DNA of 64,000 nucleotides from Promethearchaeota archaeon (GTDB lineage: Archaea; Asgardarchaeota; Lokiarchaeia; Sigyniarchaeales; SOKP01): positions 192,001 to 256,000 of the forward strand of contig JAEOUA010000001.1 of assembly GCA_016839555.1 (NCBI GenBank). Direction: 5' to 3'. The notes under the pieces were generated by a model. It was given only the letters and a program-made list of their open reading frames with translations. It ran no database searches and was not told the DNA's origin. Made by a program: the position numbers and the translations under genes. Shown here one piece after another: positions 674-48,402 of the stretch (its first letter is position 1; each line of letters opens with the position of its first letter).

Positions 674-1039
674 ATGAAGAATTTTCATGAAATCGAGAAT
701 CAGAAGAAAAAGATTGGCTATGGGGTAAAAATTTGGCTTACATTTGAAGGAAAAAGTGTTTTAGGCGCTGGATGGGCGAAATTATTGGAAATAATTGATA
801 AAGAAGAAATAGGTTCTCTAACGCAGGCCGCTAAGGAATGTAATTATTCATATAAGTATGCATGGAATATATTGAAAAGAATTGAGGAGAGGACAAATAT
901 TCCCCCCGCAATAACAAGTAAAGGCGGAAAAGGAGGTGGGGGATGGGTAAAACTTTCAGATTGGGGACTTTTACTATTACATAAATATAAAACACTAGCC
1001 CAAGAAATAGAAACCTTAAAAAAGCGATTATCAATTTAA
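674..1039 (+). CDS. ModE-family winged-helix transcriptional regulator (DNA-binding domain only)
   Basis: KIWL...LGAG..KLLE.I...GSLTQAAKECNYSYKYAWNIL...GGKGGGG is the ModE N-terminal signature. No TOBE/molybdate-binding domain. Confidence 0.85.
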   Translation: MKNFHEIENQKKKIGYGVKIWLTFEGKSVLGAGWAKLLEIIDKEEIGSLTQAAKECNYSYKYAWNILKRIEERTNIPPAITSKGGKGGGGWVKLSDWGLLLLHKYKTLAQEIETLKKRLSI

Positions 1040-1229: not shown

Positions 1230-2732
1230 ATGTCAAAACCTCCCCAAGGCGCTCCGATAATTCTGGATATTGGTTCAGGATATGTAAAGGCAGGATTTGC
1301 TGGTGAACCAAATCCAAGTCATATCTTTCCTTGTATCACAGGAAAGAGAAAATATAAATCGGTGATGGTCGACGCTGGAACGCAAATGCATGATATATAT
1401 GTAGGTGATGCGGCTATGAAACTAAGAGGTGTTTTAAACCTAAATCATCCAATTCAGAGAGGCATAATAACTAGTTGGGAGGATTATTATGAGATCCTTA
1501 ATCATGTATTTTATACCCTTTTAAGGATTGAGAACCCACAAAATCATCCTATTATATATGTAGAATCCGTGTCCGAACAAAAAGATATTCGAGAATATAT
1601 AGCAAGAGTTCTATTCGAAACCCATCAATTCCATAGCATAATTATGATTCCGAGTCCCCTCCTTTCTTGTTTTTCCGTGGGATTAACCACAGCTCTTGTG
1701 ATTGAGAGTGGAGTTGGGATTACATGGATAGTACCTATCATAAATGGGCAAATAATATATAGAGCGATTCAGAGGTTGGAGCTTGCGGGGATTGATATAA
1801 ATCATAATTTAGAATTACTTCTCATGCGTGAGGGAATAAGTTTAAGCTCCTCAGCATCAAGTGAAATTTTAAGACAAATAAAAGAAGAAAATTGCTATTT
1901 CGCATTGGATCCAGATAATCCTAATAAAACGATTGAAAAAGTAAAATATCCCTTACCAGATGGATCAATGATGGAAATCGCTCCACATATCTTATATCAA
2001 GCACCAGAAGTGATATTTGACCCTTCTATGATCGGTTCAAATTCACCAAATTTACCCGAAGCTATAATAAAATGTTTGAATTCGATAGATAAATCTTATT
2101 GGGGAGATTTATTAACACATATCATATTGTCAGGCGGTAATTTTCTTCAAAATGGATTTAAGGAAAGATTAGAATTGGAATTAAATTCTCAGATCTCTCA
2201 ATATGGACCTATACCTAAACCTCACAAAATTGAAACAGAAAGACAAGTGAAGACTCTTCAACCAGTGAAAAGCACTAAAAAGTTTCATGATACCTGTCCA
2301 AAATGTGGAAGGATTGTAGATCTCTCAGATGGAAAAATAGAATGTCCTGAATGCGGAGCTTCTCTGCAAATCACTCAAATCGATATTGAAATTAAAAATT
2401 TAGCCCCATTAAAGTGTCCTTTATGTAATAAGGAAATAGATGATAAAACATCACTTTTTTGCCCATATTGTGGACATAAACTAGCAAAAGATAGACCAGA
2501 AGTGCTCTCATCATCTGATAAAGTTCCAGAAATTCTTGAATATTTTGAATCCTCTTCAAAAATATTACATTTTTTCTTACCAGATAATTTACAAACAGCT
2601 ATTTTTAAGGGTGCTTCAATTTTAGGCAGTTTGCCTTCCTTCGATCAAATTTTTATTACTCACGCACAATATCAACAGAATAGAGAAATATTATCACGGG
2701 ATATCAGCGAAATATTTTCTTTACATTTTTAA
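1230..2732 (+). CDS. Actin-related protein with inserted double zinc ribbon
   Basis: ILDIGSGYVKAGFAGE (phosphate-1), HPIQRGIITSWED, VIESGVG (phosphate-2), LSGG (adenosine), AIFKGASILGSL. Insert carries four CxxC pairs. Confidence 0.93.
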   Translation: MSKPPQGAPIILDIGSGYVKAGFAGEPNPSHIFPCITGKRKYKSVMVDAGTQMHDIYVGDAAMKLRGVLNLNHPIQRGIITSWEDYYEILNHVFYTLLRIENPQNHPIIYVESVSEQKDIREYIARVLFETHQFHSIIMIPSPLLSCFSVGLTTALVIESGVGITWIVPIINGQIIYRAIQRLELAGIDINHNLELLLMREGISLSSSASSEILRQIKEENCYFALDPDNPNKTIEKVKYPLPDGSMMEIAPHILYQAPEVIFDPSMIGSNSPNLPEAIIKCLNSIDKSYWGDLLTHIILSGGNFLQNGFKERLELELNSQISQYGPIPKPHKIETERQVKTLQPVKSTKKFHDTCPKCGRIVDLSDGKIECPECGASLQITQIDIEIKNLAPLKCPLCNKEIDDKTSLFCPYCGHKLAKDRPEVLSSSDKVPEILEYFESSSKILHFFLPDNLQTAIFKGASILGSLPSFDQIFITHAQYQQNREILSRDISEIFSLHF

Positions 2733-2961: not shown

Positions 2962-4353
2962 ATGTCTCGAAAAAAATCTGATGAAATTGGTTTAGAGACT
3001 ACTTTTGGAACACGTGTTGCTTATGCGAATGGAACTTTGGCAGACAATCTTTCTTTGCAGAATTTTTTATTTCTTGGATTCACATTCTATTATACAGTTA
3101 TCGGACTTAATGTTGTTTGGTACGCTCTGGCATTCATTATTTATTCAATCTGGGATGCCATCGATGATCCTATAATTGGGGTGTTATCAGATCGAACTAA
3201 AACAAAATGGGGAAGAAGAAAACCGTGGATTTATCTTTCAGCAATCCCGCTTTGCATATTGATGGTATTAATTTGGACACCACCAACCCTGAATGAATTC
3301 TTTACATTCTTATATTTAACCATAATTCTAATAGTGTTTGATTTAATATTTACAACCTACACAGTAAATTTCAATGGTTTATGGCCTGAAATGTTTCTTA
3401 CAGTAGAAGATAGAAGTTCACTGGGGATTTGGAGAAGCATTTTCACCATTTTAGGAGTTGGACTCGCATTTTTACTCCCCGAAATTGTGATTGGAGATCT
3501 TGTAGCTGCAGATCCTGGAGGATATGTAATAAATGGAATTATTGCAGCAATAATAGTAGGTGCAACAATTGCAATCATGATAAAGTTTGGATGTTTTGAA
3601 AGGAAAGAATTTTCTAAGGATGTGGAAGGTGCTCCAAGTTGGAAAGAATCGTATAGAATAACTTTTAAAAATAAGGCATTTATGATATACTGTGTTATAG
3701 CACTTGCTATCTTTATTGTTTATGGTATCCTTCCCACCGTTCTCCCGCTCTATGCTAAACATATACTTGGTTCAGAGGATCCTGGTTTAATTCTCCTTAT
3801 TGGTTTATTGGTTTCCGCAGCCTCAACACCCTTATGGATGTATTTAAGAAAGAAATTAGGGGTAAGGATATCTTATATAATTTCAGCGTCGTTCTGGGCT
3901 GCATCGTTATTATTATACCTTTTAGCTTTTAATGAATTAACAGGTTATATCTTCATCATTTTTATCGGCATCGGTTTAGGAGGCTCTCTCTATATTTACG
4001 ATCAAGGTATAGCAGAATTAATTGATGACGATGAACTTCGTTCTGGGATTAGTGTTAGAAGAGAAGGTGCTTATTACGGGGTAGTTGCATTATTTAATAG
4101 ATTATCTGGAGCAATTAATTTGATTGTCCTTTCTATTGTGTTTGCAGGTGCAGGCTGGGGGGATTATGAGCTTGCGGATCCTGCTCAGGCGCCTATTATT
4201 CTCCCAATAGTTCAGATTTTCTGGCCAGTCTTCATATTAATAATAGCCGTGATTCTTTTATATTTCTATCCATTAACCAAAGAGAGAGTTGAAGAAAATG
4301 AAAGATTGAAGAAGCAATTACATGATAAAAAAAGAAAAGAAGTTTCTATATAA
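2962..4353 (+). CDS. MFS transporter, glycoside-pentoside-hexuronide (MelB/MFS_2) family
   Basis: WDAIDDPIIGVLSDRTKTKWGRRKPW and RREGAYYG motifs; about 12 hydrophobic segments. Confidence 0.9.
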   Translation: MSRKKSDEIGLETTFGTRVAYANGTLADNLSLQNFLFLGFTFYYTVIGLNVVWYALAFIIYSIWDAIDDPIIGVLSDRTKTKWGRRKPWIYLSAIPLCILMVLIWTPPTLNEFFTFLYLTIILIVFDLIFTTYTVNFNGLWPEMFLTVEDRSSLGIWRSIFTILGVGLAFLLPEIVIGDLVAADPGGYVINGIIAAIIVGATIAIMIKFGCFERKEFSKDVEGAPSWKESYRITFKNKAFMIYCVIALAIFIVYGILPTVLPLYAKHILGSEDPGLILLIGLLVSAASTPLWMYLRKKLGVRISYIISASFWAASLLLYLLAFNELTGYIFIIFIGIGLGGSLYIYDQGIAELIDDDELRSGISVRREGAYYGVVALFNRLSGAINLIVLSIVFAGAGWGDYELADPAQAPIILPIVQIFWPVFILIIAVILLYFYPLTKERVEENERLKKQLHDKKRKEVSI

Positions 4354-4462
4354 TAATAACTAATTTTTTTTCAATTTTTATTCTATTTAATAGATTTTAT
4401 AGATTTTAGAACTAAGAAATTTAGAAAAATAAAATGAAAAATGATGATAGAGTGAGTAATGA

Positions 4463-6433
4463 ATGAGATTAAAATGTGGAGCAGCAAAAGCAAAAATCAA
4501 TCCTCCTGAAGAGGTAGGAGATACTTATATTGCGGGATATCTAACTATGATGGCTCCAAAAATAAAAGATATCCATGATTCCCTTTTTGCTCGAGTGATT
4601 GTTTTATCCGAAGGAAATAATAAAATTGCATTAGTTTCATTAGAACTCATTGGTCTGTTTGCGGATGTTATTGAAAAAGTGAAAGATAGATTATCTGCAT
4701 ATGGTTTTCCGTATAAAAATGTGTACATCTTCTCAACTCATACCCATGCTGGACCAGATACAATGGGTTTATGGGGGCCAATAATAGGAAAATCTGGAAT
4801 TAATAAGAAATATATGATATTTCTTATAGATACTATTATTCAATTAGTTCTGGAAGCAGAGAAGAAGTTGGAGGAAGTTGATGTATATTTCTCAAAATCT
4901 GAACTGCCAGAATTAATTGAGAATTATCGAATAAATGCAATGGTGAATGGAAGTCTTAAATTTGTAAAATTTCTTTCAAATGATAAATTAATTGCGAGTC
5001 TTTGGTCTTATACTGCTCAACCCGAAATTACAACACGAGAAAATCTTTCCATCTCAGGAGATTATCCAGGGTTAGTTTCAAGAATGATTGAAGAAAATTA
5101 TGGAGGAACATCATTATTTGCCCTAGGATTATGTGGTGCTCAGTCTCCAATCTATTGTGAACAAGGATATGATAAGATGGAAATTTTTGCTAAGGAAATA
5201 TTTTCTAAAATCAAATTAATTTACGATAATCATAAGAAAATCAATATATCACCTATAGAGATACGATTTAGAAAAATTAAATTAAAATTAGAAAACCCCG
5301 ACTTCCAATTATTATATACCTTAGGAATTTTCGATAGAGAGTATGAAAATGAAAAAATTGTAAGTTCTGTCAGTAAAGTTAGAATAGGCGATCTTGATTT
5401 AATTAATATCCCAGGAGAACCGTTTCCAGATCTTCTTTCAGATATCTTAAATAAGCAAAAAGATATAGAAACTATTATTTTTAGTAATTCCAATGATTCA
5501 TTAGGTTATTTTATTCCTTTAAATCGATGGTCTTTAAAACCTCAAGTGTGGGTTGATTATATAGAAAATGGCAAATTCATTGGCCATGAAACAGAGTCAA
5601 TTGGTGTAGAAGCGGGACAAATTATTAGGAAGACTATAAAAGATTTATTTATCTATAAAACTGTATTAGCTATTGGCCCTCATGCTGATGATTTAACCAT
5701 TTGGGCAGGAGGGACTTTAAAAAAATTATCATCAGAGGGAAATGAATTAATTTGTATAAGAATTACCGATGATTACGCCGATTGTGTGGGATTAACCAAG
5801 GAAAAAGGGATAAAAAGAAACAGAAAAGAAGTCGAAAAAGCATATAGGACTTTAGGAGCAAAGGAAATTATCCATCTTGACTATCCAACAGATACATTAT
5901 CAACAGCAGATTATCATGAATTAAGAGGTAAATTAGTACGCTTAATGAGAAAATACAAACCGAATCTAGTCGTGTCTTTCGATTTGAATGGAACTGATGA
6001 GGAAAATATGGATCATATAATTACCGCTCGAGCTGTTAATGAAGCTTGTTGGCAAAGTTCTTTTGATCTATTCTATACTGAACATTTTGAAGAGGGATTA
6101 GAAATTCATACAGTTGGAGAACGATATTTATTTGCCAGAAATCCAACAGTGTTAAATTTCTATGTTGATATTTCAGATTATATCGAAGACAAAATAAATG
6201 CTATCAATCATCAAAAAACTGTAATGGAGAATTGGTTTCACCAGAATAAATTATTAGCAAGAGCGAATAATTTATATGTTGAGTTATTGGAAGAAGATGT
6301 ACCAAATGCTATCAGAGTGACTTTACTTGTCAAATTAGTGTATGGAGAGATGGGAGAAAAGTATGGTGTGAAATATGCCGAAGAATTTAATAGAATTGAT
6401 GCAGGAATGCTAAAAGATTTAGCAGAGGAATAA
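4463..6433 (+). CDS. Fusion of neutral/alkaline ceramidase-like amidohydrolase and PIG-L family deacetylase
   Basis: N-part has HDSLFAR, STHTHAGPD, ISGDYPG and PGEPF (ceramidase family). From about residue 400: AIGPHADD...GGTL...DH...YAEEF (PIG-L/MshB/LmbE). Confidence 0.85.
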   Translation: MRLKCGAAKAKINPPEEVGDTYIAGYLTMMAPKIKDIHDSLFARVIVLSEGNNKIALVSLELIGLFADVIEKVKDRLSAYGFPYKNVYIFSTHTHAGPDTMGLWGPIIGKSGINKKYMIFLIDTIIQLVLEAEKKLEEVDVYFSKSELPELIENYRINAMVNGSLKFVKFLSNDKLIASLWSYTAQPEITTRENLSISGDYPGLVSRMIEENYGGTSLFALGLCGAQSPIYCEQGYDKMEIFAKEIFSKIKLIYDNHKKINISPIEIRFRKIKLKLENPDFQLLYTLGIFDREYENEKIVSSVSKVRIGDLDLINIPGEPFPDLLSDILNKQKDIETIIFSNSNDSLGYFIPLNRWSLKPQVWVDYIENGKFIGHETESIGVEAGQIIRKTIKDLFIYKTVLAIGPHADDLTIWAGGTLKKLSSEGNELICIRITDDYADCVGLTKEKGIKRNRKEVEKAYRTLGAKEIIHLDYPTDTLSTADYHELRGKLVRLMRKYKPNLVVSFDLNGTDEENMDHIITARAVNEACWQSSFDLFYTEHFEEGLEIHTVGERYLFARNPTVLNFYVDISDYIEDKINAINHQKTVMENWFHQNKLLARANNLYVELLEEDVPNAIRVTLLVKLVYGEMGEKYGVKYAEEFNRIDAGMLKDLAEE

Positions 6434-6477
6434 TATCAGAACTATATATATAAAATTTTTATTTATTTTTTTTATTA

Positions 6478-7521
6478 TTATACTGATTTTATAAATTGAA
6501 TAATTTTTTTTATCTTATTCTGATTTAGGTTCAATCTAGGAGAGTTATAAATCGAATACATTAAATTTTCTTGCCTAACATAATCTTGGATTTTTTTAAA
6601 AGATTTTTTTAAAATTTCAGATGAAATTTCAAGAGATTTTGGAGATATATCCAAGTTAATGTCATTAAAAAATTCTAGAATTTCTTCAATAGAAAATTCA
6701 GCAATATCTTCTTGTAAATAGAGACTGATTAAAATATTCATTCCAATGATTTGGCCATGAATATAATGAGAATGTGTAATAGATTCGATACAATATGCTA
6801 GAAAATGCTCGCTCCCTTCTTCAGGCCTTGCATTTCCCCATTTATTACATAAAGTTACTTCTCGAAAAAATCCTTCAACCAACGCTTTTATTCCTTTATC
6901 ATTAACATCTCTAATATCATTTTTTGATTTCATTAGGTCTTTTGCAATAGTTTTTGCTTGATCAAAAGTATCTTTATCAAATCTTTCATGATTTTCTTTA
7001 TAGGCCAATTTCCAATCCCCCAGAGCAGAAGTTATAGATATCGTATCTGAAACACCTGCTCTATTTAAATATTTGGGGGCCTGCTTTATAAGATCATAAT
7101 CAATTATGATTTTTTTGGGAGAGCTTTCTCCAATATAATTAACGTTATTGTCATATCTCACTGCAATTGAAGAACATAAAAACGCATCCACAGAGATGAT
7201 TGAAGGAACTAATATTAAATCTAATTCAAGTCCAACTTCTTCTTTTAATTTCCATGATAAATATTTAGCGGTATCACAAGAAGTACCCCCTCCTATTCCG
7301 ACAATAGTATAAGAATCATTAAACAAATCTTTTAAGCTGAGATAGAGTTCTCTGAGATGTTTAATATCCATAGAATTATTAAAGCTAACTTTTAAGGGAA
7401 TATTACTAATTTTTGGCTTTAGGATATCCCAAGGTTCCTTCATAGTGACTATTAAACACTTATCTAATGCATTTAATGTCTCTACTGCAATCCCTTTTCC
7501 ATAAATAGGTTTGATAACCAT
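6478..7521 (-). CDS. Glycerol-1-phosphate dehydrogenase-like protein (DHQ synthase / Fe-ADH superfamily)
   Basis: GIGGGTSCDTAK, VPSIISVDA, AGVSD, GSEHFLAY, HGQIIG resemble EgsA/AraM motifs. Confidence 0.75.
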   Translation of the reverse strand: MVIKPIYGKGIAVETLNALDKCLIVTMKEPWDILKPKISNIPLKVSFNNSMDIKHLRELYLSLKDLFNDSYTIVGIGGGTSCDTAKYLSWKLKEEVGLELDLILVPSIISVDAFLCSSIAVRYDNNVNYIGESSPKKIIIDYDLIKQAPKYLNRAGVSDTISITSALGDWKLAYKENHERFDKDTFDQAKTIAKDLMKSKNDIRDVNDKGIKALVEGFFREVTLCNKWGNARPEEGSEHFLAYCIESITHSHYIHGQIIGMNILISLYLQEDIAEFSIEEILEFFNDINLDISPKSLEISSEILKKSFKKIQDYVRQENLMYSIYNSPRLNLNQNKIKKIIQFIKSV

Positions 7522-7711
7522 ACTTAAATAAAATTTTAGTAATTACTAAGTTCTTTCATTCTTTAAATGTTTAAATGATTTCTTATTCAAAAAAATTAAT
7601 TTGTATTTTTTAGTTATAAATACTAATTTATAAAGAATTAAATGAGTAAATGAAGAATTAATTATTAAAAGTTCATAGCAATTTTAAAATTAAATTTTAA
7701 ATGTGATTTAA

Positions 7712-8758
7712 ATGAAAAATATTAAGGTTGGAATCATAGGCTCTGGATTCATAGCCGAACATCATTGTTATGGATATTCTCTTTTACCAAATGTTGAAAT
7801 AATTGGAGTTTCAGCCTTACATAAAGAAAATCCATTGAAATTAATAAAAAAATTTGACTTAAAATGTGAGTGGTATAAAGATTATCATGAATTATTAAAG
7901 CAGAACTGCGATGTGGTTTCGATTTGCTTACCAAATTATATACATAAAAAAGCTACTATTGACAGTTTACATTCAGGAGCCCATGTGCTTATAGAGAAGC
8001 CTTTAGCTAGAAATCCAGAAGAGGGAATTGAAATGATAGAAGCAGAAAAATCTTCTAATCGTCGAATTTTCTATTGTGAAAATAATATGTATGCCCCCTC
8101 TTTTATTAAAGCCAAAGAAATTATTTCTGAAGGAGCTCTTGGTAATATTTATATGGCAAGAGGAAAAGAACAACATTCAGGTCCGCATTCTGCCTGGTTT
8201 TACAAAAAAGAAAAAGCTGGTGGAGGTGCATTAATAGATTTAGGAATTCATGATATTGCCTGTTTGGTATGGTATTTAGATTGTGAGGTTCTTGAAGTCT
8301 TTTGTCAAACTAGAACTCTAAAGACTGAAAGAGAAAAATTCGGAAAGTGTGAAGTCGAAGATAATGCAGTAGGGATTTTATTATTTGAAAATGATGCTCA
8401 AGTTATTATTGAGGAATCATGGACTGCTCCTGGAGGATATGATATGAGATTCGAAATATTTGGCGAGCAAGGACAAATTAAAGTGTCGCCCACATTTAGT
8501 AATTTAATTAATGTCTACAGTAGGAATGGTTATGGATATGCTCTCGAAAAAGCAGAATCCACTCAAGGGTGGACATTTCCCGTTCCCGCCGAAGCTTGGA
8601 ATTTTGGATATCCACAAGAGATACAGCATTTTATGGATTGCATTATTAATGATAAAAAAACTATAACAAATGGGGAATATGGATTAAAAATTTTAAAAAT
8701 AGTTGATGCAATGTATAAAAGTTCAAGATCAGAAAAACTTGAATCTGTAATCTATTAA
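7712..8758 (+). CDS. Gfo/Idh/MocA family oxidoreductase
   Basis: GIIGSGFIA, CLPNYIH, IEKPLA, GGGALIDLGIHDI. Confidence 0.92.
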   Translation: MKNIKVGIIGSGFIAEHHCYGYSLLPNVEIIGVSALHKENPLKLIKKFDLKCEWYKDYHELLKQNCDVVSICLPNYIHKKATIDSLHSGAHVLIEKPLARNPEEGIEMIEAEKSSNRRIFYCENNMYAPSFIKAKEIISEGALGNIYMARGKEQHSGPHSAWFYKKEKAGGGALIDLGIHDIACLVWYLDCEVLEVFCQTRTLKTEREKFGKCEVEDNAVGILLFENDAQVIIEESWTAPGGYDMRFEIFGEQGQIKVSPTFSNLINVYSRNGYGYALEKAESTQGWTFPVPAEAWNFGYPQEIQHFMDCIINDKKTITNGEYGLKILKIVDAMYKSSRSEKLESVIY

Positions 8759-8841
8759 AACAATTTTAAGAGTTTTATTTAACTTCTTTATTTCTTTTTA
8801 GAACTGTTTATATGTAGTTAAAAAAGATATTTCGATTAGCA

Positions 8842-10047
8842 TTACTTTTTTAAAGAACTTATAAAATCAAACACTTTGTCTAATGCTTTTTTCTCTGATA
8901 ATAATATTCTCTGTGGAAATTCAATGCAACGAGAATAAATATCTGACACAATAGGGAAGTTTTTATTATTGCTTTTGAGATCTCCCCAGTTAGCGTTTGA
9001 ATAATCAATACCTTTTCGAAGCTTTATTTCTTTAAAACATCTTAAACTATGAAGTGGAGGGTAACAATTGTCTGTAGGAATTCCATTCTGATTTAATAAC
9101 TTAAAGAACTTCTCTTTACTAATACCTCCAAATTTTTCGGGTCTAAATACGATAGGAAAAATATACCATCCTAATTCTGTTGTTCCAGGAGTGGGCTTCA
9201 TTGTAGTGATCCCCTCTATTTTATTCAATCTTTCTGAAAAATATGTTGCAGTTTCATTTCTTACCTTATGCTGTTTTGGAAATTTTTTCAATTGAGATCT
9301 TAATAAGGCCCCCAAAAATTCACTCATTCGATAATTTGTTCCGTAAACAAAATGTGCATAAGAAAAATGATTTTTCTTTCTCCCACAATCAATAATTGAG
9401 TAAATTTTATCAGCTAATTCGTCATCATTACATATAATTGCGCCCCCTTCTCCACTCGTTAATACTTTTGAGGCTTGAAAGCTAAAAGTGCCAGCATTTC
9501 CCCAATTTCCTGCCCTTTTCCCTTTATATCTGCTACCTTGAGCATGGGCACTATCTTCCACGATTTTAAGATTATTTTTTTGAGCAATATCCACTAATTT
9601 ATCCATCTCTACGGGATTGCCTCCAAGATGAACTGGAATTATTGCTTTAGTTCGTTTGGTAATTAAACCCTCAACTTGATCTACATCCATAACAAAAGTC
9701 TCTGGATTAATATCACAAAAAATTGGTACCGCATTAGCTGCAACTACTGCAGATGCAGAAGCTACAAACGTAAAATCTGAAACAATTACTTCATCACCTA
9801 ATCCTATTCCTAAAGCTAATAATGCGGCCTCGATAGCAACAGTACCGTTAGCTACAGCAATACAATGTTTCGCTTCTTGAAAAGAAGCAAATTCCTCTTG
9901 AAATTTCCAAATATTTTCTCCAGAATGATCTCCTGGAGATCCCGCCCACCATTTGCCAGATTTAACTACATTAGACATTGCTTCAATATCATTTTCATCA
10001 AAAATAGGCCACTCTTGAAAATTCTTCTCTCTTTCTTTTTTAACCAT
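8842..10047 (-). CDS. DegT/DnrJ/EryC1/StrS PLP aminotransferase (RifK/BtrR-like)
   Basis: ANGTVA, FTFVASA, EDSAHAQG, SFQASKVLTSGEGG (PLP lysine), GTNYRMSE. Confidence 0.92.
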   Translation of the reverse strand: MVKKEREKNFQEWPIFDENDIEAMSNVVKSGKWWAGSPGDHSGENIWKFQEEFASFQEAKHCIAVANGTVAIEAALLALGIGLGDEVIVSDFTFVASASAVVAANAVPIFCDINPETFVMDVDQVEGLITKRTKAIIPVHLGGNPVEMDKLVDIAQKNNLKIVEDSAHAQGSRYKGKRAGNWGNAGTFSFQASKVLTSGEGGAIICNDDELADKIYSIIDCGRKKNHFSYAHFVYGTNYRMSEFLGALLRSQLKKFPKQHKVRNETATYFSERLNKIEGITTMKPTPGTTELGWYIFPIVFRPEKFGGISKEKFFKLLNQNGIPTDNCYPPLHSLRCFKEIKLRKGIDYSNANWGDLKSNNKNFPIVSDIYSRCIEFPQRILLSEKKALDKVFDFISSLKK

Positions 10048-10275: not shown

Positions 10276-11136
10276 CTATTTTTTAATCCATTTCTCATAT
10301 AAAAAATATGTATTATGCAGTAACATAGCGACGGTCATGGGTCCAACTCCCCCCGGAACAGGAGTGATCTTTTCAACTTTTTCTATAACATCATTGAAAT
10401 CAACATCTCCACATAATTTATCTCCTACTCTATTTATCCCAACGTCTATAATTATGGTGTTTTTCTTTATTTGCTTTTTTTTTATGAAATTTGGTTTTCC
10501 TATTCCAACAATAAGAATATCTGCTTGAAGCGTATAATTTTCAAGGTTTTTTGTATAAACATGACATACTGAAACTGTAGCATCTCTATTTAAAAACATT
10601 TGTGTTAAAGGTCTTCCCAACAGAGTTGAGTGGTTTATAATTGTAATATCTTTTCCTTTAATGGGAATATTATAATGATTTAATAAATTTATAATTCCTT
10701 TTGGGGTGCAAGGAGCCAATTCCTCATTATTATAATAGAGATTACCTAGATTAACGGGATGTAAGCCATCAACATCTTTCTGAGGAATTATATATTTAAT
10801 AATTTCATGAATGTCATTTTGTAAATCGATTGGTAATGGTAATTGCAGCAATATTCCATGAATGTCTTTATTTTGATTTAATATTTTAATTTCTTTTATT
10901 AGTTCTTGTTTAGCTGTATTTTTATCCAATTGAACGATTTTAGTGTCGATCCCAATCTTTTTACATGTCTTCTGTTTGATATTAACATAAATTTTAGATG
11001 CAGGGTCTTCTCCCACTAGAATAGTCGCTAATTTGGGTGTAATACCATATTCTTTCTTTGCCTTTTTTATTTTATTTTCAAGAATTGAATTTAATTCGTT
11101 TGCTATCTTTCTGCCATCAAGAATTTTATTTTCCAA
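10276..11136 (-). CDS. folD: Methylenetetrahydrofolate dehydrogenase/cyclohydrolase
   Basis: ILDG, LVGEDPAS..YV..K, GILLQLPLP, KDVDGLHP, PCTPKGI, DVGINR, PVPGGVGPMTVAML. Confidence 0.95.
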   Translation of the reverse strand: MENKILDGRKIANELNSILENKIKKAKKEYGITPKLATILVGEDPASKIYVNIKQKTCKKIGIDTKIVQLDKNTAKQELIKEIKILNQNKDIHGILLQLPLPIDLQNDIHEIIKYIIPQKDVDGLHPVNLGNLYYNNEELAPCTPKGIINLLNHYNIPIKGKDITIINHSTLLGRPLTQMFLNRDATVSVCHVYTKNLENYTLQADILIVGIGKPNFIKKKQIKKNTIIIDVGINRVGDKLCGDVDFNDVIEKVEKITPVPGGVGPMTVAMLLHNTYFLYEKWIKK

Positions 11137-47604: not shown

Positions 47605-48402
47605 ATGTATTGTCCTAATTGTGGGGAAGAAATAAAGTCTGAGGAACAAAAATATTGCGAACAATGTGGCGCTGAATTACCTGAAAGAAAACCTGAACCT
47701 GTTCAATCTCAAGAACAAGATGAATCAGTGGTTCAAAAAGGCGGGCTATTCGATCTGAGCCGTAAAATGTATGTTCTTCGTGAGAAGTATTGGGATTTCG
47801 GCTCTGGCGATATCTATGATAAAGAGGGAAAAATAATTGGAAAAATGGATCGAAAATTCTTCGATTTTAGGCGGACTATAAAATTAAGGGAAGTTGATGG
47901 AACTGTTGCTGCAACAATTCATGAGAAAATAATATCAATTCAAGGCGAAAACATTTTATTAGATGCGCAAGGAAATTTAATAGCACGCTTTAAGAAAAAA
48001 ATTACCTCATTTTTCCATCCTAAATTTTGGTTAGAAGACCCAAACGGTACAAGATGGTATGAAGCTATAGGAGAATTTATGGGCTGGTCATTTGGAATAA
48101 GAGAAATTGCTACGGGAAAAACAGTTGCTGAGATTGAAAAAGCAGATCGCTGGCGAGATATTTTTTTGGGTGGCTTTTTTGATTTTCAAGATACTTATGC
48201 GTTAAGAATTCTTGATAATGAAACTGACAGACGTATTCTTGTGGGATTTGTGTTATCAATCGATAATGTATTACATGATAATAGACATGGGATGGGGTAT
48301 CGGTTCCCTTGGGGTCTTGGACCATTCCCGCCTGGAAGAATGCCTTGGCCTCGTCGAATACCACCAGGAAGAAGACCCTGGCCTGCTCGATGGCCTTTTT
48401 AA
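47605..48402 (+). CDS. Zinc ribbon + LURP1/scramblase (tubby-C-like) protein with Pro/Arg/Trp tail
   Basis: CPNCG..CEQCG; YVLREK.W, IYD.EG, A.I..K, DTY.L.I...DRRILVGFVLSID. Confidence 0.75.
   Translation: MYCPNCGEEIKSEEQKYCEQCGAELPERKPEPVQSQEQDESVVQKGGLFDLSRKMYVLREKYWDFGSGDIYDKEGKIIGKMDRKFFDFRRTIKLREVDGTVAATIHEKIISIQGENILLDAQGNLIARFKKKITSFFHPKFWLEDPNGTRWYEAIGEFMGWSFGIREIATGKTVAEIEKADRWRDIFLGGFFDFQDTYALRILDNETDRRILVGFVLSIDNVLHDNRHGMGYRFPWGLGPFPPGRMPWPRRIPPGRRPWPARWPF

Follow-up and report, generated by a model that had tools for sequence, protein, structure and literature searches.

The question raised by this locus is what an actin-related protein (ARP) does when one of its filament-contact loops has been exchanged for a module of putative zinc ribbons, and whether such a protein can still be built into a filament. 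The protein bears on the roles of the non-Lokiactin actin paralogues of Asgard archaea. The gene (1230..2732 (+), 500 aa) lies near the start of the window, which is the whole 64,000-nucleotide stretch of a Promethearchaeota archaeon genome that was analysed, and belongs to a single-copy orthologous family of one Lokiarchaeia order, referred to here as the zinc-ribbon ARP.

Fold, insert and distribution

The zinc-ribbon ARP is a member of the actin family: the Pfam Actin model (PF00022) matched residues 9–324 (E-value 9e-73) and a second stretch, with a score of 245.7 bits against a cut-off of 27. The NCBIfam models for crenactin, MamK and BeeR reached 23–25 bits against cut-offs of 400–630, and no NCBIfam model for MreB was matched. 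The alignment with solved actins ends around residue 320 and is taken up again around residues 449–484, in the last strand of subdomain 3 and the helix that follows. The stretch bounded by the equivalents of R312 and W340 of actin counts 27 residues in Lokiactins and 145 in the zinc-ribbon ARP, a surplus of 118 aa. The insert (2208..2561 (+), net charge +1) stands in place of the actin 322–325 contact loop and is composed of a 29-aa linker, ribbon 1, a 20-aa linker, ribbon 2 and a 30-aa linker. An earlier sequence-only reading had described an ARP fold interrupted at 2211–2555 by an insert of about 115 aa, which was essentially right, and had recognized in it a double ribbon of four CxxC motifs. 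The latter was borne out by a match to the Pfam model DZR (PF12773; residues 356–415, 33.6 bits against a cut-off of 27.3) and by the motifs CPKC356, CPEC372, CPLC396 and CPYC411, mapped at 2295, 2343, 2415 and 2460, respectively. Both ribbons are of the CxxC-x11/12-CxxC type and would bind zinc, judging from their cysteines. Ribbon 1 (C356/C359 and C372/C375; 2295..2354 (+)) was present in all full-length orthologues examined, and ribbon 2 (C396/C399 and C411/C414; 2415..2471 (+)) was missing from family f4 and from the Lokiarchaeum genus, so that the term double holds for the source gene and not for the family as a whole, in which these two groups carry one ribbon. The C-terminal part of the actin fold (2562..2729 (+)) comprises the last subdomain-3 strand and the subdomain-1 helices, with the cleft equivalents of I345, L346, L349 and F352 kept. 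In an AlphaFold model built from 132 sequences, the actin core was intact (mean pLDDT 82.6) and the ribbons (pLDDT 72–78) were carried on disordered linkers of low confidence; compared with PDB actins, the model gave TM scores of about 0.9 (0.86–0.93 by target) and a complete four-subdomain fold.

A profile search of the order, which comprises 154 genomes, recovered orthologues in 143 (~93%), including single-contig genomes, and in two further genomes the gene was cut off by contig ends. Among 246 other Asgard genomes, with three candidates scored per genome, none rose above the Lokiactin level. A database search returned 119 homologues with 52–80% identity, most of the named ones from Promethearchaeota or Lokiarchaeota, all of which have the eight cysteines, and these cysteines were invariant across 120 close homologues. 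The length of the insert ranged from 97 to 210 aa within the family, and pN/pS among close relatives was 0.13 in the core, 0.30–0.32 in the ribbons and 0.44 in the linkers; the insert is thus conserved and under purifying selection. The survey of its conservation, with the same insert in the same place in 143 genomes, refuted the suspicion of a chimera that had accompanied the first reading. In a FastTree phylogeny of the insert-free cores, the family formed a single clade (support 1.0), distinct from Lokiactin and also from two further ARP families of lokiarchaea; the tree moreover contained eukaryotic actins and a number of divergent actin-like sequences, with no identified Arp2, 3, 4, 8 or 11 among them, and none of these grouped with this clade. 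By its core sequence the zinc-ribbon ARP is, therefore, a paralogue of its own outside the Lokiactin clade, as the view of a specialized Asgard ARP had held. Family f4, with one ribbon, was the earliest branch of the core tree. The Lokiarchaeum genus is nested among two-ribbon forms, and has therefore lost ribbon 2; one-ribbon members always retain ribbon 1.

Other actin relatives were also encountered. The source genome carries its own Lokiactin on C1 and, on C7, a second Lokiactin-like gene (L002:1495-2634 (-), G000:C7) that is 82% identical to the main copy and lies on a faster branch; a similar copy occurs in G048. In G074, a full-length zinc-ribbon ARP is accompanied by a 385-aa duplicate on a long branch (L054:3973-5130 (-), G074:C37), from which the insert is absent with both flanks intact. 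Two loci of G399 (L066:644-2902 (-) and L065:1-1713 (-), the latter running off its contig) encode the C-terminal two-thirds of the actin fold followed by an N-terminal segment with the phosphate-1 loop, which gives them the look of an actin in circular permutation or in tandem; the tail is long and acidic. In family f13 (L059:1230-2678 (+) and L060:1495-2958 (-)), divergent ARPs about 485 aa long carry at their N-terminus a Cys/His extension that closes with CxxC, and a zinc module may thus have been fused to an ARP independently in another Asgard class. ARPs of families f5–f7 (L061:1119-3548 (-), L062:955-3513 (-), L063 and L064) have C-terminal extensions of 100–470 aa, with an apparent winged-helix-like start followed by repeats. 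A motif scan for other actin-fold proteins with ribbons in the same loop found none beyond the family among the matches listed (best 150 representatives at 50% identity).

The fusion architecture was already catalogued in 2020, when DSAG12_03244 of Ca. Prometheoarchaeum syntrophicum MK-D1 was entered as a fusion of an actin-related protein with a double zinc ribbon (Imachi et al. 2020, PMC7015854, supplementary ESP table). This protein is almost certainly the L040 ORF (ribbons at 372–433), and hence an orthologue; the table gives the fusion, without the interruption of the fold at a filament contact, a residue analysis, the distribution or a function. In a literature search, with most subscription papers outside it, no paper describing the position or function of the insert was found. 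In Ca. Lokiarchaeum ossiferum, three non-Lokiactin 'ARPs' were reported, among them UYP44711.1, with transcription below that of Lokiactin (Rodrigues-Oliveira et al. 2023, PMC9834061), and a term search of the main text of that paper found no mention of zinc or of an insert. Both published qPCR primers for UYP44711.1 fall within the orthologous ORF (L039:5304-6803) of the 6.04-Mb single-contig genome, and the zinc-ribbon ARP is thus one of these three unnamed ARPs. UYP44711.1 differs from the source gene in having only ribbon 1 and a shorter D-loop. By monophyly, a shared insert site and a shared gene neighbourhood, the zinc-ribbon ARP is orthologous to both UYP44711.1 and DSAG12_03244.

Nucleotide site and stacking faces

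The residues of 32 diverse members of the family were compared with those of 37 Lokiactins. The phosphate-1 loop (1266..1289 (+)) is invariant, with D13, G15 and K20 corresponding to actin D11, G13 and K18, and the phosphate-2 loop is kept as E159–G163, with W166 for actin H161 (1704..1727 (+)). The equivalents of D11, G13, K18, G156, G158, E214, G301 and G302 were all invariant, that of K213 was found in 31/32 members, and the adenosine GG motif is retained in the family. Sensor-loop H73 is replaced by R77 (1458..1460 (+)) in 32/32 members and catalytic Q137 by S142 (1653..1655 (+); S in 24, T in 6 and A in 2 of the 32), and the H161 position is occupied by W in 115 of 120 close homologues (family f1) and is variable in distant ones, whereas Q137, H161 and H73 were Q, H and H in 37/37 Lokiactins. 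In actin, Q137 and H161 position the attacking water. The loss of Q137 and the replacement of H161, together with the preserved phosphate loops, suggest that ATP is bound and poorly hydrolyzed, and the zinc-ribbon ARP is accordingly regarded as a probable ATP-binding but hydrolysis-impaired protein. Human Arp8 carries the same H73 to R change, yet displays weak ATPase activity (PMC3510490).

The two stacking faces were evaluated at 15 contact positions each, taken from PMC7247010 and PMC7956362. On the pointed-end face, the D-loop (1347..1385 (+)) is Lokiactin-like, with K41 and Y42 invariant and M46 (actin M44) in 31/32 members, the RGVL stretch 66–69 (actin 62–65; 1425..1436 (+)) is invariant or nearly so, and the subdomain-4 contact PDG 243–245 (1956..1964 (+)) is invariant, being also present in other ARPs and partly structural. 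On the barbed-end face, the subdomain-3 patch (2088..2102 (+)) is remodelled, with D288 and R290 lost and a Y-W pair (290–291) instead, which adjoins the insert; the Y169 position has become Q, E or K, and the hydrophobic cleft (equivalents of F143, I345, L346, L349 and F352) is partly kept. Actin residues 322–325 contact residues 243–245 of the next subunit (PMC7247010), so that the insert replaces a longitudinal contact loop of the barbed face. The match to the Lokiactin consensus was 0.58 for the pointed face and 0.19 for the barbed face, with 0.37 overall (permutation p = 0.005), a statistic whose positions are not independent, are in part structural and were picked after the alignment had been viewed. 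The exclusion of Gly/Pro positions gave 0.55 versus 0.14 (p = 0.0005), and the pointed face exceeded the barbed face in 32/32 members; the clade to which the cultured strains belong had the lowest pointed-face match (0.47) and the least pronounced asymmetry. Of the controls, Lokiactin conserves both faces alike (0.86 and 0.83), and two other lokiarchaeal ARP families presented no asymmetry of the faces (p = 0.72 and 0.90). M44 (31/32), R62 (32/32) and V64 (32/32) are kept in the zinc-ribbon ARP versus 0/9 in ARP family B; ARP family B, too, retains K39, Y40, P243 and D244, whose conservation may be structural. On this residue comparison, the zinc-ribbon ARP has one intact and one degenerate stacking face.

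ARP family B (L003:1492-2607 (+), G000:C10, and orthologues) retains Y143, H173, D286, D288 and R290 but neither M44 nor R62; its Q137 position is occupied by D, G or E and its H161 position by R. Its pattern leans opposite to that of the zinc-ribbon ARP, with an asymmetry that was not significant (p = 0.38–0.88), and it occurs in families f1 and f3 and not in f4. An obligate heterodimer of the two ARPs was considered and rejected, given this non-significant asymmetry and given that ARP family B was not found in four f4 genomes having the zinc-ribbon ARP.

Cap, adaptor and other readings

The abundance of the orthologue was taken from the proteome and co-immunoprecipitation tables of L. ossiferum (bioRxiv 10.1101/2025.11.30.690169, Suppl. 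Table 2). The masses of GNAMCCOK_01003 (31.93 kDa) and 01004 (41.88 kDa) fit those computed for a FolD-like protein (31.95) and a membrane protein (41.9) encoded beside the ARP gene, and GNAMCCOK_01005 was on this basis assigned to the ARP. Lokiactin ranked 59th with a mean log2 intensity of 21.69 and the membrane protein 73rd with 21.46, whereas the ARP reached 16.12, which corresponds to an ARP to Lokiactin ratio of about 1:47, the type of intensity not being stated in the sheet. Such a ratio is what would be expected of an adaptor or of a protein at filament ends, and does not fit a bulk filament or a monomer buffer. The zinc-ribbon ARP is, with considerable confidence, not a filament-building subunit and would not polymerize by itself. 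The sequence-only reading had likewise set it apart from filament subunits, and the insert in a longitudinal contact loop, the lost barbed contacts and the roughly 47-fold scarcity relative to Lokiactin speak for that view, at least as regards a bulk subunit.

The best single mechanism, tentatively placed ahead of an adaptor and held at somewhat less than even chances, is that of a non-polymerizing, hydrolysis-impaired cap or anchor at the barbed end of Lokiactin filaments. A low-copy ARP would bind ATP, hydrolyze it poorly and be unable to extend a filament. Its Lokiactin-like pointed-end face (D-loop, 62–65 and 243–245) would dock on the terminal Lokiactin subunit of a filament, at the barbed face of that subunit, and its own barbed face, bearing the insert and devoid of the D-loop-receiving and subdomain-3 contacts, would admit no further subunit. 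The barbed end would thereby be capped or anchored, as a mirror image of dynactin Arp11, and the flexibly linked ribbons might bind a partner protein close to the membrane and so act as a tether. That the filament partner is Lokiactin, and that the ribbons act as a tether, is presumed here; the capping itself is read from a kept pointed face and a lost barbed face, by the one-face reasoning used for Arp11, whose pointed-end role this reasoning had predicted (PMC2174220). In favour of this reading are also the prevalence of the ribbon type on predicted membrane proteins of the source genome and the single-pass membrane gene that usually follows the ARP in the order. Absence of self-assembly, a weak ATPase and binding through the pointed face are predicted for the family. 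The Lokiactin co-immunoprecipitation, in which formaldehyde-fixed L. ossiferum cells were used, enriched five gelsolins and a profilin (bioRxiv 10.1101/2025.11.30.690169). The ARP (01005) was not among the ratio-sorted rows listed down to a log2 value of -1.06, and was hence either not enriched or not detected, in an experiment that covers one species and a one-ribbon orthologue whose low abundance limits sensitivity and whose gene identifier was assigned indirectly. This result counts against stable capping, although not decisively.

A more specific form of the cap reading, in which the ribbons anchor the terminated Lokiactin filaments to a membrane complex that possibly includes an abundant toroid-domain surface protein, is rather doubtful. 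The gene of this protein follows the ARP gene, within 500 bp (median 160), in 131 of the 139 genomes that have both, is present in 143/154 genomes of the order (e.g., L039:4056-5204 (-) and L021:186-1358 (-)) and is the sole neighbour conserved in all four families, in a region where gene order is generally stable. Its product passes the membrane once and has a signal peptide, an ectodomain of the prenyltransferase-like alpha-alpha toroid type and, in the cytoplasm, a basic tail of only about 5–8 residues that ends in R-I, and it is a candidate major cell-surface protein, being nearly as abundant as Lokiactin in L. ossiferum. The protein (01004) was not enriched in the Lokiactin co-immunoprecipitation (ratio -0.017, p = 0.97). 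As an obligate partner it was rejected: the gene has been lost in the source genome and its two closest relatives (one clade), where ARP and insert persist, it is unlinked from the ARP in G157, and its product exceeds the ARP about 40-fold in abundance in L. ossiferum. A distant homologue in another order of the class (L142:3634-4740 (-), G001; E-value 4e-44) has no adjacent ARP, and the toroid membrane gene may be older than its linkage to the ARP. RNA contigs from the L. ossiferum locus differed among four runs: two gave a single deep contig confined to the ARP and membrane genes (L039 ~4040-6830 or 7270), and the other two a contig spanning the whole region; being contigs from a single study, they show neither one transcript nor an expression level. 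In relatives, a FolD-like gene stands on the same strand after the ARP and the toroid membrane gene; in the window it is displaced and inverted (10276..11136 (-)). Between the ARP and this gene lies a cluster (2962–10047) that starts with an MFS sugar transporter and includes a 656-aa fusion of a ceramidase N-terminal domain with a PIG-L deacetylase and three minus-strand ORFs which, by eye, are dehydrogenase-, oxidoreductase- and DegT-type aminotransferase-like; the transporter and ceramidase/PIG-L genes also follow the ARP in G153.

The reading that survives best beside the cap is that of a monomeric scaffold or adaptor in a non-filament complex, similar to nuclear Arp4/Arp8, in which an ATP-bound platform would turn its pointed face to a non-actin partner and its ribbons to membrane or signalling proteins. 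This possibility, less probable than the cap, would agree with the lack of enrichment with Lokiactin, the low abundance and the conserved linkage to a membrane gene, as well as with the loss of Q137 and the change of H73 to Arg that is shared with human Arp8, a protein whose inserts explain its failure to polymerize (PMC3510490). It leaves unexplained, however, the identity to Lokiactin's own contacts in the D-loop and at 62–64 (M44, R62 and V64), and no partner was found to be co-conserved without exception. Much less probable is a filament or co-polymer of the ARP, in which the subunit interface would have co-evolved and the ribbons would sit on the outer surface. The partly retained hydrophobic cleft, the flexible linkers on which the insert leaves the core and the clean loss of the insert in the L054 duplicate are in keeping with it, but the pointed face has stayed Lokiactin-like while its would-be partners Y169, D288, R290 and M325 have changed and vary within the family, and the abundance is only about 1/47 of that of Lokiactin.

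The sequence-only reading had further proposed a protein- or nucleic-acid-binding module, of which the protein part is weakly supported, as a deduction, and the nucleic-acid part is not supported. The net charge of the insert had a median of 0 in the 120 close homologues and fell to -29 in distant ones, and nucleic-acid binding is disfavoured because the insert is neutral to acidic. The same ribbon type was found in 44 ORFs of the source genome, and a membrane helix was predicted in 31 of the 41 other ribbon ORFs scored, versus 429 of 2018 (21%) in a crude background; one such ORF in the window (47605-48402 (+), 265 aa) has an N-terminal ribbon of this type and no NCBIfam match. The simplest view, accordingly, is that the ribbons form a protein-binding tether near the membrane, and nucleic-acid binding by the insert is unlikely. 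A PDB sequence search of the insert produced matches at the CxxC level only, and an ESM Atlas feature search gave no usable match. A chromosomal or transcriptional role, with the ribbons bound to DNA or RNA, is regarded as improbable: zinc ribbons are known in TFIIB and RNA polymerase subunit P, but the weak matches to these reflect CxxC spacing alone. In families f1 and f3, the gene upstream of the ARP is usually a ModE-like HTH gene (36/50 loci; 674..1039 (+) in the window), which is probably a matter of synteny only. Marginally less probable again is a 1:1 heterodimer that sequesters or senses free Lokiactin monomer; a monomer might attach by its barbed face to the single intact stacking face, yet a protein present at about 1:47 cannot buffer the monomer pool, and the ARP was not found in the co-immunoprecipitation that recovered profilin. 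An assembly chimera or a functionless insertion, for which the frequency of similar ribbons in the source genome might be invoked, can practically be dismissed in view of the same insert with invariant cysteines in genomes that include single-contig ones, its pN/pS values and the detection of the orthologue as a protein in L. ossiferum.

Comparison with known systems

The zinc-ribbon ARP shares with Lokiactin and eukaryotic actin the fold, the nucleotide-binding loops and the pointed-end contacts, with 37–38% identity in the core, and differs from Lokiactin in the replacement of Q137, H73 and usually H161, in the lost barbed contacts and in the insert. Current models of lokiarchaeal motility name gelsolins and profilins as the only regulators (PMC13716822). 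One of these regulators, Loki 2DGel, bears a C-terminal Zn domain that is likewise a (CxxC)2 module on a lokiarchaeal actin regulator, and that does not bind F-actin and was proposed to bind a cellular feature (PMC9433394). Homology of the ribbons to this domain was rejected, as it has 28 residues between its knuckles versus 10–12 and only the CxxCG knuckle aligns.

Among nuclear ARPs, Arp8 and Arp4 also carry inserts at filament-contact positions, and Arp8 combines the H73 to Arg change with an insertion (V) at the barbed end of subdomain 3 (PMC3510490). Unlike the zinc-ribbon ARP, Arp8 has large inserts that cover the pointed end and the plug, has no zinc ribbons and is a member of INO80. 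A short insert in the same loop is found in Arp2 and Arp3. These are, similarly, substoichiometric ARPs unable to co-polymerize (PMC2199984), but they present their barbed faces to nucleate growth, the very face that the zinc-ribbon ARP has lost. The family was found in one order only, and so has no direct bearing on the ancestry of the eukaryotic Arps. Should the membrane-anchor form of the cap reading be correct, an actin-to-membrane anchor would have evolved independently from an actin duplicate in one Asgard order. A further parallel is dynactin Arp11, in which one intact and one broken stacking face were read as those of a filament-end cap (PMC2174220); Arp11 keeps its barbed face and lacks a D-loop, in contrast to the zinc-ribbon ARP, and no orthology is claimed. 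If the cap or anchor reading is correct, an archaeon would have turned a duplicated actin into a factor that binds filament ends, independently of the eukaryotes, which use Arp11 and Arp2/3 in this way.
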